Positions 30,666 through 33,023 of a stretch of DNA of 64,000 bases are shown piece by piece. Every line of letters starts with the position of its first letter. The stretch's first letter is position 1. This DNA is from an uncultured Bacilli bacterium. GTDB lineage: Bacteria > Bacillota_I > Bacilli_A > RF39 > UBA660. The position numbers and the translations under genes were made by a program. The notes under the pieces were generated by a model. The model was given only the letters and a program-made list of their open reading frames with translations. It was not told the DNA's origin and made no database searches. The stretch lies in contig CALVIX010000001.1 of NCBI GenBank assembly GCA_944331895.1, positions 105,545 to 169,544 of the forward strand, read 5' to 3'.

Positions 30666-31913
30666 CTAAACGATAAATCCTCTTAAAAATAAACCGGGGT
30701 TCAGTTGTAAATATTGATCTAAACTGCTATAAGTTTTTACGCGGGTCCATTCTTTTGCATGTGCGATGGTAGGACCAGTAAAATTCCCATTACCACCTAC
30801 ATTTGCTTCAGAAATTGTAATCGATGTAAGATTTCCTGCAGCATCGTATTTTACGTCTTCGACAAATGCTACATGGCCATATATATCGCCACTTCCTAAA
30901 ACGATGACAGAGTGTTTTTGTGGCGTGGAACTAACTCGACTTGGATCTGCATTGGCTACCCACGTTCCGGCATTTCCGTTTTGGACTGGTGAAACACCGT
31001 GTGTCTGAAAATATCGCCTAGATGCAAACCATGTACATTGTCCGACTAAATTTCCTGCACCATAAAAATTCGTAATGAGACCGTTCCATTCATCAAGAGA
31101 AGTAATTGGATAATTAGAACTATTGATTCCAATCGTTCCATCCGGCATCCATGTTAACAATTGATTCCCTGCCTCTGGACGCAAAGGAATCGTCGCTTGG
31201 TTAATATTACTTAAATTTGTAAAGCCATAATAATCAGACCATACCATTTTTGCCAGATACACAGAGAGCGCTTCATAATTCAATTTAACATTTCCATCTT
31301 CCCCCAATGTATAAAGAGAAAATCCGAATTTATCTTGAAATTCTTTTTCTTTTCCATGATATTGTTCTAAAATTGTCTTTACTACACTTTCGTATAATGG
31401 AAAATCATTTTGAATCTTTTGTAAAAACGCATCCCACTCTTCTGATGTTGATCCTTCAAAAGCAGTTTCCAACATTTTTTTGATATCATCGTTCATTTTA
31501 ATACTACTATTTACTTTCGATATTTCCGTAGCTGCATCTTGAGAAGAACAAATCATACCATCTTTAGAAAAAGTATAACTTATTCCAGATGCATCAATTA
31601 TTTTTGCCCCGTCTTTTTCCGTCAAAACTATTTTTGCTCCATTTTTTAATACGATATTTAGTGTTTCATCTTTTTCTGTAAAAGATTCGATCATATCTTT
31701 ATCTATAAATTCAATTCCTACTTTTTCTAATTTTTTTACAACCTTTTTTTTCGTCATCTTGTTATCAGGAAGCTCAATTACAACCTCTTCAGTCATTACC
31801 GTCTTACTGGGATTTTGAATTCCAGAAACAGGACCAACTCCAGCTAGGTTGTGAGTCGCATTATAATTGAGACTCACATCTTTTTCTAAAGATGTCTTAA
31901 TTTTTTCTGACAT
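30666..31913 (-). CDS. CHAP-domain (Cys/His amidohydrolase/peptidase) protein without a signal peptide
   Basis: The C-terminal 140 aa carry the CHAP catalytic Cys (GQCTWFASRRY) and His (GHVAFVEDV). The N-terminal 270 aa contain beta-rich repeats (IVLKNGAKIVLTEKDGAKIIDASGISYTFSKDGMI). The N-terminus MSEKIKTSLEKD is hydrophilic. Confidence 0.7.
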   Translation of the reverse strand: MSEKIKTSLEKDVSLNYNATHNLAGVGPVSGIQNPSKTVMTEEVVIELPDNKMTKKKVVKKLEKVGIEFIDKDMIESFTEKDETLNIVLKNGAKIVLTEKDGAKIIDASGISYTFSKDGMICSSQDAATEISKVNSSIKMNDDIKKMLETAFEGSTSEEWDAFLQKIQNDFPLYESVVKTILEQYHGKEKEFQDKFGFSLYTLGEDGNVKLNYEALSVYLAKMVWSDYYGFTNLSNINQATIPLRPEAGNQLLTWMPDGTIGINSSNYPITSLDEWNGLITNFYGAGNLVGQCTWFASRRYFQTHGVSPVQNGNAGTWVANADPSRVSSTPQKHSVIVLGSGDIYGHVAFVEDVKYDAAGNLTSITISEANVGGNGNFTGPTIAHAKEWTRVKTYSSLDQYLQLNPGLFLRGFIV

Positions 31914-31925
31914 ATTTTCCCTCCT

Positions 31926-32177
31926 TTATAGATTCTTAGAGATCATAGGTATGATTTCTAAAACTAATCTTTCTTTTACGTCTTGTTCTAAACTTTGTAG
32001 CTGTTCAAACTGATCTTCAAATGCGACACGTTGATCTATCATCATATTTTTTTCTACCTGGCTTCTAGTCGTTTGATGTTGATCTTCTAACAGTTCTAAA
32101 TTATTTTTCAAGCCCTGCATTTGTTGTAATAACCATTGGTATTGCTGCTTTCTTATGATGTTATTTTCATCCATCAT
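31926..32177 (-). CDS. Small acidic coiled-coil protein (83 aa)
   Basis: Q/E-rich and predicted helical. It overlaps the upstream gene by 4 nt, suggesting translational coupling. Confidence 0.4.
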   Translation of the reverse strand: MMDENNIIRKQQYQWLLQQMQGLKNNLELLEDQHQTTRSQVEKNMMIDQRVAFEDQFEQLQSLEQDVKERLVLEIIPMISKNL

Positions 32178-32476
32178 ATCATGTCCTCCAATCGTTTTTC
32201 TACTTTTTTCTTCGTTTCTCTATAGCCCGACAAAGTCTTTTCCATTTGTTCTATATCAGTTTGTTGATTCATTTGAATTGCTCGAAATTTAGACATCATC
32301 TCGTCATTGAAGGTATCAAAAAAAATAGTATTCTCTGTAACATAATGAGTAGTCAATTCTCTTAATAATTTTATAGTGGAGTCAAAGCAAATAGACTCTT
32401 CTTTATGATACATTCGAAGTTTCCCGATCGCCCCTTCCAACTTTATCTCATCAATAAATTGATCCATGTTAAACAC
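32174..32476 (-). CDS. Small helical protein (100 aa)
   Basis: A helix-turn-helix-sized acidic protein with no TM. It overlaps neighbours on both sides. It may be a WXG100-like or Lap-like accessory protein. Confidence 0.4.
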   Translation of the reverse strand: MFNMDQFIDEIKLEGAIGKLRMYHKEESICFDSTIKLLRELTTHYVTENTIFFDTFNDEMMSKFRAIQMNQQTDIEQMEKTLSGYRETKKKVEKRLEDMI

Positions 32477-33023
32477 CCTCTCTTATGTCAGTCATCTTTT
32501 GAATTTGTAATTGTGATACCTTTTTATTTATCTGATCTTCAAACTCTTGCATTCTATCAAATAGCTGAACTAATCGATCTTTAAGATCTTCAGTTTCTTC
32601 GTAAATCTTCATCAATTGTGCATGTTCTCTACTAATAAGAGACGAAACTTCTGGATACGTCGCTAATGGTATTTTTTTACATATGCTTATACATAATTTA
32701 ATTTGATCTAAATATTGATTAAAGTGAGAAACCACGTTGTTTTTTTCTTTTAATTGCACTTTAATTCGATTACCAATTTGCTCGTAATTTGATATTATCT
32801 CTCCGTAGATTTCCTTTACCGTATGTAATTCATCAATAGATCTTTTTACGTGATTTTTCTCGATATACATATTATCAAAAAATTTCTTTGAACGTTCATC
32901 ATTCCAAAAAAAAGAAGAAGAAGAAACTACATGATAAAAATTCATATAAATTTCTTCATATTCTTCTATTGCATGTTCTAATTGTAATACCGTTGTTTTT
33001 AGTTTATCAATATGAATTTCCAT
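32469..33023 (-). CDS. Helical hypothetical protein (184 aa)
   Basis: Acidic and predicted all-helical, with no TM. It is the first gene after the 214-aa gene. Confidence 0.4.
   Translation of the reverse strand: MEIHIDKLKTTVLQLEHAIEEYEEIYMNFYHVVSSSSFFWNDERSKKFFDNMYIEKNHVKRSIDELHTVKEIYGEIISNYEQIGNRIKVQLKEKNNVVSHFNQYLDQIKLCISICKKIPLATYPEVSSLISREHAQLMKIYEETEDLKDRLVQLFDRMQEFEDQINKKVSQLQIQKMTDIREGV

Follow-up and report, generated by a model that had tools for sequence, protein, structure and literature searches.

A signal-less CHAP-domain protein of chimeric origin encoded behind a reduced type VII secretion gene set in uncultured gut Bacilli

CHAP415, a 415-residue protein encoded on the minus strand of a 64,000-nucleotide (nt) stretch of DNA from an uncultured Bacilli bacterium (this whole stretch is referred to below as the window), combines a C-terminal CHAP domain with a long N-terminal region of toxin ancestry, and its gene is the last of a cluster that begins with the gene for the type VII secretion ATPase EssC. 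An earlier note on this DNA had proposed that the protein, together with three small helical partners, is a cell wall hydrolase or antibacterial effector exported by the type VII system. Our analysis points to a well-conserved wall hydrolase or effector that is associated with type VII secretion and has an instructive chimeric origin: the protein has a CHAP domain and carries no export signal, its gene sits in an operon and is strictly linked to essC, much of it descends from a family of peptidase toxins, and its alleles are deeply divergent. We consider it probable that CHAP415 leaves the cell through the type VII system and has peptidoglycan as its substrate, irrespective of whether the wall that it cuts belongs to a neighboring cell or to the producer itself.

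Organization of the Locus and Linkage to EssC

The genes of the block under study all lie on the minus strand, in the order Spo0A, EssC, Ubl, an 85-nt gap, p214, p184, p97, p82, and CHAP415. The open reading frames (ORFs) were checked at the coordinates that the earlier note had assigned to them, and the four for p184, p97, p82, and CHAP415 are all present there, on that strand. The features of the unit are as follows.

34044..38702, minus strand: EssC, FtsK/SpoIIIE-type type VII ATPase with an N-terminal FHA region (TIGR03928, Pfam)
33782..34063, minus strand: Ubl, small ubiquitin-like protein of 90–93 residues, overlapping the essC stop, in the EsaB/YukD position
33736..33764, minus strand: promoter-like site TTGACA-17-TAATAT in the 85-nt gap 5' of p214 (consensus match alone)
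33052..33696, minus strand: p214, predicted single-chain four-helix bundle of two helical hairpins
32469..33023, minus strand: p184, helical, with a W40-x-D42 turn and a variable C-terminal part
32174..32467, minus strand: p97, small, presumably helical
31926..32177, minus strand: p82 (83 in the earlier count), small, presumably helical, its start overlapping the p97 stop (ATGA)
30666..31913, minus strand: CHAP415, whole gene, 415 residues
31887..31913, minus strand: CHAP415 residues 1–9, M-[SA]-x-KIKTSL, with invariant columns in the ortholog alignment
31494..31886, minus strand: CHAP415 residues 10–140, hypervariable, disordered Ser/Asn/Thr-rich and beta-hairpin segment (LNIVLKNGAKIVL...YTFSKDG)
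31059..31493, minus strand: CHAP415 residues 141–285, degenerate C39-like papain-fold peptidase lobe (hhalign, BLASTP)
30669..31058, minus strand: CHAP415 residues 286–415, predicted CHAP amidase/endopeptidase domain (PF05257)
31037..31035 and 30875..30873: codons of Cys293 and His347, respectively, with E369 and N371 also in the CHAP domain
30641..30659: intrinsic-terminator hairpin (AAAGTGCAGGATGCACTTT and a T-run) directly 3' of the CHAP415 stop
29901..30581, minus strand: scar where a second type VII locus has been deleted, outside the seven-gene unit

The sizes of 184, 100, and 83 residues that had been given for the small proteins hold for the first, whereas 100 becomes 97 (an upstream GTG had been counted, and the orthologs have 97 residues) and 83 becomes 82. 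Their translational coupling is borne out by the gene spacing, with a gap of 1 nt between p184 and p97, the ATGA overlap between p97 and p82, and a gap of 12 nt, with a Shine–Dalgarno sequence, between p82 and CHAP415. The GC hairpin and T-run right after the stop codon agree with the claim that CHAP415 is the last gene of the essC operon, but the site at 33764..33736, a possible internal promoter, suggests that p214, p184, p97, p82, and CHAP415 may also be transcribed separately. We note that p184, p97, p82, and CHAP415 are real genes rather than chance ORFs, since they are conserved in 11 other loci with nonsynonymous divergence (dN) well below synonymous divergence (dS).

Full-length homologs of CHAP415 are rare, forming 10 clusters, all of them metagenomic, and the gene occurs in five GTDB species labeled uncultured Tenericutes, Acholeplasmataceae, Mycoplasmatota, or Bacilli, one of the genomes, the source of L008, being a complete chromosome of 1.26 Mb, OZ006994.1. 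EssC, Ubl, p214, p184, p97, p82, and CHAP are contiguous and in the same order in all nine fully flanked loci (L001–L009, from metagenome-assembled genomes of the gut), and two short contigs are consistent with this arrangement. This seven-gene block is found in at least three chromosomal settings: one with Spo0A upstream and p530, p452, and NAGPA downstream, one with glycosyltransferases upstream and Amidase_3, Abi, and HtrA downstream, and a third in L003. The link to EssC that the earlier note had drawn from a single stretch of DNA thus extends to nine of nine loci across these settings, and the CHAP415 gene was not found outside type VII contexts.

The CHAP Domain and the Absence of an Export Signal

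CHAP415 matches the Pfam CHAP family PF05257 over residues 285–371 with E = 6e-16 and 59.1 bits against a cut-off of 26, and PDB entry 5t1q, a CHAP amidase from S. aureus, aligns with it at the segments GQCTWF, YGHVAFVE, and ISEAN; further PDB matches of the domain are to 2lrj and 2k3a. Residues C293, H347, E369, and N371 are invariant among 10 orthologs. The Cys/His catalytic dyad that had been read off the sequence is therefore real. All detectable relatives of the domain are wall hydrolases, namely, staphylococcal CHAP amidases, PcsB, and hydrolases of type IV secretion systems, and CHAP415 is predicted to be a peptidoglycan amidase or endopeptidase. The nearest sequences are P0011–P0015, with about 40% identity over the domain, which are membrane-anchored hydrolases of conjugative type IV systems.

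Inspection of the sequence and its hydropathy found no Sec signal, no twin-arginine motif, and no transmembrane (TM) segment in CHAP415, in line with the earlier description of the protein as lacking a Sec or Tat signal: the maximum of the 19-residue Kyte–Doolittle mean is 1.13, compared to 2.4–2.7 in neighboring membrane-anchored proteins. A signal peptide hidden by a misplaced start codon can be ruled out. An in-frame TAA lies 15 nt 5' of the ATG, an AGGAGG stands at the proper distance, and within the conserved first nine residues (MSEKIKTSL in the window) M1, K4, I5, K6, T7, S8, and L9 are invariant among the 10 orthologs, such that the start is fixed and cannot be extended.

Descent of the N-Terminal Two-Thirds from a C39-Like Toxin Family

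The N-terminal 270 residues had been described as beta-rich and as what would be a new kind of targeting or receptor-binding region, and neither half of this description holds in full. The AlphaFold model of CHAP415, which is of low confidence (predicted local distance difference test score, pLDDT, of 63.7), shows residues 1–50 disordered, strands at 75–123, and helices at 128–240, and a Foldseek search with this poor model returned nothing informative. Nor is the region entirely new, as residues ~30–285 are homologous to a family of C39-like peptidase toxins. An exhaustive hmmsearch profile search with residues 1–285 as the query yielded 157 cluster representatives at E ≤ 1e-3, most of which align over residues ~140–240 and several from residue ~10–30 on. 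The alignment of residues 141–285 with the p481-type domain, named here after a protein encoded elsewhere in the window, has an hhalign probability of 95.5% and E = 1.5e-8, and BLASTP matches CHAP415 to a 374-residue protein of L087 at 4e-11. The type of beta-hairpin segment seen in residues 10–140 also occurs in P0158, P0159, and P0177.

Members of this family are 300–750 residues long, mostly without a signal peptide, and have a peptidase domain of the papain-like type, in which a Cys (in GC.YTA) and a His (in GHAM..TG...VSSWG) are invariant; one member has a weak Peptidase_C39_2 match, and the family is unnamed and has no Pfam model of its own. In CHAP415, the Cys motif aligns to DFPLYES, and the His motif (GAHAVYVTG) aligns weakly (BLASTP E = 0.003) to DGTIGINSS. 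Because the catalytic Cys and His are replaced, residues 141–285 are a degenerate rather than an active member of the family, and a homologous stretch without these residues makes CHAP415 a chimera of a toxin scaffold, a dead peptidase lobe, and a live CHAP domain. This fits the absence of an immunity-type neighbor resembling p236: no p236 homolog was found beside CHAP415, and the only one in the window lies at 45432..46142, next to p481.

The active members, in turn, adjoin p236-like, immunity-type genes (L088, L092–L094, and L097). In L088, the C39-like domain makes up the C-terminal domain of a 1195-residue protein whose gene lies in a type VII cluster, flanked by a DUF4176 gene and a p236 homolog, and P0170 and P0258 are fusions of it with an LXG domain that scores above the Pfam threshold. 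On the strength of this in-cluster toxin, the pairing with p236-like genes, and the LXG fusions, the family behaves as a type VII toxin domain. A metagenome search with a narrower query alignment returned 10 loci, with EssC within the flanks in none of them, and a sequence search of the PDB with the p481 family gave nothing meaningful. The window itself contains a toxin module of this kind at 45106..47550 (minus strand), ~6.4 kb beyond essC and past glycolysis genes, made up of p481 (47550..46105; signal-less, with a C39-like Cys/His peptidase domain), the immunity-like p236, and a complete gene for a DUF4176 chaperone of 108 residues.

The start of p481 (MSVSKIKANT, 47521..47550) resembles that of CHAP415. 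Starts of the type I/L-[NKS]-[TS] are found in 16 of 142 representatives of the peptidase family (11%), compared to 2.7% of internal sequence windows, which is a modest enrichment. We also observed repeats of [KR][LIM]KT[SN] in the cytoplasmic N-terminal tails of P0011–P0015 (loci L010–L021 and L084–L086), with SKLKTN occurring three times in P0014. The KIKT-like N-terminal motif may serve FtsK-like ATPases as a common recognition signal, or may reflect compositional chance.

The Small Helical Genes as a Conserved Core

The AlphaFold model of p214 (pLDDT 89, predicted template modeling score 0.83) has helices at residues 8–41, 48–90, 124–153, and 162–213. W45, at the first turn, is invariant, and the motif Y199-x-x-x-E, YxDTE(G), is conserved at the C-terminal end. 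The protein belongs to a family of more than 174 members and is 95–98% identical across the CHAP clade. Its modeled fold resembles what would be expected for a fused WXG100 pair, making it a candidate for the EsxA-equivalent core substrate of the system. There is, at the level of profiles, no WXG100 match for p214, the only hints being weak ones to ESAT6_2 (E = 0.007) and EspC (E = 0.7), and a Foldseek search against the PDB returned generic helical bundles, none of them significant, with no Pfam assignment.

In the case of p184, the N-terminal 60 residues, which include the invariant W40-x-D42 turn, are almost invariant, and the C-terminal 120 are hypervariable. Homolog searches found close relatives only. 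Four orthologs give YwqH-like matches to PF16888 below threshold (E of 5e-5 to 5e-3, 18–24 bits against a cut-off of 33.7), so that p184 looks, at this sub-threshold level, like a hairpin of the type found in LXG partners. No Pfam or PDB match was obtained for p97 or p82, and PDB sequence searches with p214, p184, p97, p82, and Ubl gave nothing meaningful.

Three loci without a CHAP gene (L087–L089) place these proteins in a broader setting. Their gene order is EssC, Ubl, DUF4176, a toxin of 695–1195 residues, an immunity-like protein of 173–235 residues, p214, p186, p97, and p80, followed by housekeeping genes; the p214 of these loci is 56–67% identical to that of the window, and p186, p97, and p80 are the orthologs of p184, p97, and p82. 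Nothing occupies the slot after the p82-type gene in L087 and L088; the slot in L089 contains a 253-residue HExxH protein with a similar beta N-terminus, together with a downstream gene of 150 residues. Judging from these gene orders, CHAP415 is a lineage-specific addition in a cargo slot behind p82. The earlier comparison of the small genes with the Lap genes that precede LXG toxins is in line with the sub-threshold likeness of p184 to LXG partners, but does not stand for a fixed set that includes p214 and is retained in loci that lack CHAP; as the small genes persist without the CHAP gene, the term "Lap-like helpers" suits them less well than that of a helical core which the system conserves.

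We note that the large toxins of these three clusters (7210..9312 in L087, 5583..9170 in L088, and 7175..9262 in L089) each lie behind a small DUF4176 gene and share an N-terminal domain of ~400 residues that contains hydrophobic stretches rich in glycine and matches no Pfam family. At the C-terminal end, they carry interchangeable heads, namely, HExxH domains in L087 and L089 and a C39-like peptidase in L088, which also has three internal repeats of ~150 residues.

EssC, Ubl, and a Reduced Type VII Gene Set

With 948 bits on the TIGR03928 profile (T7_EssCb_Firm), whose cut-off is 778, EssC of the window is a true type VIIb ATPase; in Pfam, it matches FtsK_SpoIIIE and, weakly, FHA. The ATG annotated for essC coincides in part with a terminator-like hairpin that follows spo0A (38710..38695), and the EssC orthologs align only from residue ~9–27 on; the true start is probably Met28 (MKIVLYLQ..., at about 38621). 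Ubl is conserved in position and size in all 12 loci used for the count of the apparatus (L001–L009 and L087–L089), four of six orthologs give a weak UBL_UBAC1 match (E of ~1e-3 to 1e-4), and the protein has no visible C-terminal Gly-Gly. In L003, EssC (1686..6251) is a mosaic, in which the N-terminal ~700 residues are only 18–38% identical to the window EssC and the C-terminal half is 62–86% identical to it, as in L001; p184 of this locus is split into two ORFs, and p214 has an N-terminal extension of 15 residues.

This type of locus consists of EssC, Ubl, and four helical proteins, directly flanked by housekeeping genes, and may represent an undescribed minimal type VII subtype. The subtypes c–j described by Garrett et al. 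(PMC11217815) all lack a CHAP component, and this gene set is not among theirs. A more far-reaching proposal would be that EssC, Ubl, p214, p184, p97, and p82, with no EssA, EssB, or EsaA, form a minimal type VII system with a class of cargo that is neither LXG nor WXG100, CHAP415 being one of its substrates, where the cargo would be recognized by an MS-x-KI[KN]T[SN] start, a disordered or beta-hairpin module, and interchangeable heads (C39-like, HExxH, or CHAP). Taken as a joint statement, we regard this as doubtful. If it were true, CHAP415 would become the first known type VII substrate with peptidoglycan hydrolase activity and would represent a new targeting mode.

Variation within the Species

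The window and L004 come from the same species, as the genes of the downstream flank differ by a dS of 0.03–0.07 with 98–99% protein identity. Between these two loci, p214 has a dN of 0.011 and a dS of 0.49, and residues 1–60 of p184 have a dS of 0.38, whereas residues 61–184 of p184, p97, p82, and CHAP415 are saturated in dS with a dN of 0.2–0.33. The divergence is greatest in residues 10–140 of CHAP415, which are 31–37% identical to those of same-species loci with a dN of 0.63–0.74 (31% and 0.74 for L004). The CHAP domain has a dN of 0.16–0.17 and a dS of ~1.3, giving a dN/dS of ~0.12, values that mark the catalytic domain as being under purifying selection. For EssC, overall identity is 82%, and the sequence varies most in the N-terminal region and in the ATPase domains at the C-terminal end.

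The small genes and CHAP415 are all part of one recombining cassette. Downstream of it, p530 (28192..29784, minus strand) has one TM helix at residues ~77–95, a large outside domain, and no family match. This protein is 79–83% identical to its orthologs in L004 and L005, compared to 95–99% for the next genes, p452 and NAGPA, and thus the divergent tract reaches past the CHAP415 gene. At the other end, Spo0A (38709..39479) is 98% identical in protein sequence to its L004 ortholog (2369..3145) but has a dS of 0.62. Set against the values of 0.03–0.07 for p452 and NAGPA, this places a recombination boundary between p530 and p452, and indicates that the tract from essC to spo0A stems from a more distant lineage. 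The overall pattern looks like a variable effector module downstream of a conserved type VII core, and a p214 that is 95–98% identical beside a strain-divergent cassette offers a compact system in which to address both the required parts of the apparatus and the choice of cargo.

The Downstream Scar and the Proposed Immunity Gene

The earlier note had suggested the 184-residue protein encoded at 29901..30455 as an immunity protein. The corresponding ORF (30455..29901) is instead a truncated DUF4176 gene, whose match starts at profile position 18 such that ~15 N-terminal codons are missing, and it is part of a deletion scar in which a promoter-like site (30581..30552) and codons 1–20 of a second essC (essC2; 30526..30467) are joined out of frame to the DUF4176 gene. 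In the closest relatives, L100 (CHAP 98% identical) and L101 (89%), an intact second essC follows right after CHAP (features of this second locus lie at 2851..5259 in L100 and at 2430..2705 in L101), and its product is 36.5% identical to EssC of the window. The DNA of the window is identical to that of L100 through the promoter region and the 20 codons up to ...GGCAAAGATG and then enters the interior of the DUF4176 gene out of frame, with the deletion joint at the GGCAAAGATG microhomology; L004 and L005 do not have the scar segment at all. The DUF4176 proteins, which form the Ltc toxin-chaperone family, act as chaperones for specific toxins (PMC12478183). The structure of the scar and this family assignment together rule out the ORF as an immunity gene.

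The second candidate, p530, was likewise rejected as a conserved immunity or apparatus protein, being adjacent to CHAP415 only in the species of the window itself, absent from the contexts of L001 and L006–L009, and without a family match.

Proposed Export and Function

Taking these observations into account, we propose the following sequence of events. CHAP415 is made from the same transcript as p214, p184, p97, and p82, which would constitute the conserved core substrate or targeting set of the system. The helical set would deliver CHAP415 to EssC, probably, we infer, via the variable C-terminal half of p184 together with p97 and p82, and the protein would leave the cell, independently of Sec and Tat, as cargo of the adjacent EssC system. 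Once outside the membrane, it would cut peptidoglycan, most likely in the wall of neighboring Gram-positive cells, where the variable N-terminal region would determine wall or strain specificity. That CHAP415 is in this way an antagonistic bacteriolysin, delivered by the type VII system against the walls of Gram-positive neighbors, is a reading that we adopt tentatively, at somewhat short of an even chance. A role as a weapon is nevertheless somewhat better supported than a role in opening the producer's own wall, since the gene is dispensable in sister lineages and occupies a cargo slot, and the protein is of toxin descent and hypervariable.

A number of points weigh against this bacteriolysin proposal. 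That CHAP415 is exported through EssC, that it contacts the small proteins, what the enzyme cuts, and which cell it attacks are all points that we infer. CHAP415 has no match to LXG or WXG100 at E ≤ 0.1 in Pfam or NCBIfam, which agrees with the earlier remark that an LXG domain is absent, and its low-confidence model suggests that the N-terminus is not a helical bundle. The identity of p214 as a WXG100 protein is unproven, and as the four-gene set is present in L087–L089 without CHAP, p184, p97, and p82 are not dedicated partners of CHAP415. In none of the 12 loci were EssA, EssB (YukC), or EsaA (YueB) found among the cluster proteins, the scanned neighbors, or the gene lists and Pfam assignments of related loci, in a scan that did not extend to ~10 other ORFs of the window or to the rest of each genome. 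A conserved enzymatic head behind a variable N-terminus is the reverse of what is seen in classical polymorphic toxins, and the closest relatives of the CHAP domain are machinery-associated hydrolases of conjugative type IV systems rather than toxins. Finally, no conserved immunity gene was found next to CHAP415 in any context, its neighbor being the scar, p530, a second essC, or a Sec-type Amidase_3. The missing immunity gene, the conserved catalytic domain, and the kinship of the CHAP domain all point the other way.

These same three points (the lack of an immunity gene in any context, a catalytic domain under purifying selection with a dN/dS of ~0.12, and nearest CHAP sequences, P0011–P0015, that are membrane-anchored and encoded beside VirB4, VirD4, PrgI, and TrbL genes) speak for a self-directed function, in which CHAP415, still exported by EssC, would locally cleave the producer's own peptidoglycan to let type VII substrates, or an envelope-spanning part, through the wall, in the manner of EssH, of the VirB1-type hydrolases of conjugation systems, or of flagellar FlgJ. 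Throughout its clade, CHAP415 also keeps one and the same place, at the end of the core p214 operon, and there are precedents in the form of EssH, a CHAP hydrolase at a type VII locus that is required for secretion and also needs its N-terminal domain for this (PMC13059805), and of a CHAP gene at the type VII locus of group B Streptococcus (PMC10765036). EssH, however, uses Sec and is not a type VII substrate, whereas CHAP415 is signal-less. As L087–L089 have the same core of EssC, p214, p186, p97, and p80 and lack CHAP415, this type of machine does not require it. In addition, two-thirds of CHAP415 come from a toxin family that has immunity partners and LXG-fused members, and its allelic divergence within the species is far above the genome baseline. 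We therefore judge a self-directed wall opener to be rather unlikely, while still deserving serious consideration.

An alternative that dispenses with type VII export altogether is that CHAP415 is an autolysin released by lysis, and lies next to essC as a result of coregulation or chance linkage. Spore formers are known to have signal-less mother-cell lysins, for example, CwlC of B. subtilis, which reach the wall when the membrane is breached. Sporulation genes are indeed present, with Spo0A directly upstream of essC and SpoVG and YabP flanking L088, and a CwlD-like Amidase_3 and a SleB-like Hydrolase_2 are found near L001. Against this, CHAP415 is embedded, both in translation and in transcription, behind p214, p184, p97, and p82 in every locus, in a block that is shared across three chromosomal contexts, it is chimeric with a domain of a type VII toxin family, and its hypervariability would be unexpected for a housekeeping lysin. 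We consider this alternative improbable.

Even less can be said for an intracellular role, in which the CHAP/papain-fold domain would process Ubl, a helical substrate, or a small-molecule amide instead of peptidoglycan. CHAP-superfamily enzymes include cytoplasmic amidases, and the lack of an export signal and the presence of Ubl in the same cluster would be in keeping with such a role, but all detectable relatives of the domain are wall hydrolases, Ubl has no visible C-terminal Gly-Gly, and positive support is lacking, which leaves this role highly improbable. A phage or prophage endolysin released by a holin has a negligible probability and is effectively refuted by context: CHAP domains are common in endolysins, and there is one weak PDB match to a phage Peptidase C51 protein, but the gene maps of the window and of 11 related loci contain no phage structural genes, holin, or integrase around CHAP415, and its neighbors are EssC and housekeeping genes.

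The locus also points to a type VII system of unusually few genes, carried by gut Bacilli that are abundant but uncultured and whose genomes measure ~1.2 Mb. To our knowledge, the WXG100 proteins, LXG toxins, and reverse-LXG lipases that make up the known cargo of type VIIb systems are all helical, and we know of no CHAP-type wall hydrolase for which type VII export has been shown, the well-studied EssH using Sec. If export of CHAP415 is EssC-dependent, a signal-less CHAP hydrolase would therefore widen the range of type VII cargo.

Comparison with Known Systems

The closest functional counterpart of CHAP415 is EssH of S. aureus. This protein (described by Bobrovskyy 2018, as cited in PMC10765036) shares with CHAP415 a C-terminal CHAP domain with a Cys/His dyad, a noncatalytic N-terminal domain of unknown fold, and a place at a type VII locus. 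It differs in having a Sec signal peptide, of 24 residues, in being explicitly not a type VII substrate (PMC13059805), and in being divergently transcribed from esxA. CHAP415, by contrast, is signal-less, is the last cistron of a helical operon, contains the remnant of a dead toxin domain, and is hypervariable within the species.

LXG toxins (TelA and TelC of S. intermedius, and YwqH-YwqI-YwqJ; reviewed in PMC10765036) resemble CHAP415 in being signal-less cargo encoded downstream of EssC with small helical proteins before them. In B. subtilis, ywqH is the first gene of the LXG toxin operon ywqH-ywqI-ywqJ-ywqK (PMC8321402), and p184 is YwqH-like at a sub-threshold level. The likeness extends to the DUF4176 chaperones in the same genomes and to the fusion of the C39-like domain to LXG in P0170 and P0258. 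Unlike these toxins, CHAP415 has no LXG domain, no helical N-terminus, and no adjacent immunity gene, and at its locus, the small genes are a fixed core set and the variable part is N-terminal, with the enzymatic part conserved.

The C39-like toxins, represented in the window by p481/p236 (47550..45432), share with residues ~30–285 of CHAP415 a pretoxin beta segment and the N-lobe of the peptidase, as well as an MS.KI[KN]T-type start and the lack of a signal. CHAP415 departs from the p481 family in having lost the catalytic Cys and His, in its degenerate C-lobe, in the CHAP domain added to it, and in lacking a neighbor that resembles p236. The VirB1-like CHAP proteins P0011–P0015 have the closest CHAP domains, belong to a machine with an ATPase of the FtsK/VirD4 type, and carry the [KR][LIM]KT[SN] motifs in their N-terminal tails. 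They differ in being 600–670 residues long and TM-anchored, and in being encoded in VirB4/VirD4/PrgI/TrbL clusters with no EssC nearby.

Finally, two systems in other envelopes offer the same concept of a signal-less hydrolase that travels through a specialized machine. The peptidoglycan amidase effectors of type VI secretion (Tae) are signal-less wall hydrolases used as weapons, with cognate periplasmic immunity proteins, and FlgJ is exported by the flagellar type III apparatus that it serves and opens the producer's own wall. Both differ from CHAP415 in the secretion system and in the envelope. If CHAP415 is indeed exported by its adjacent EssC system, it would add to the contact biology of Gram-positive bacteria either a wall-degrading weapon, as in the case of Tae, or a self-exported wall opener, as in the case of FlgJ.

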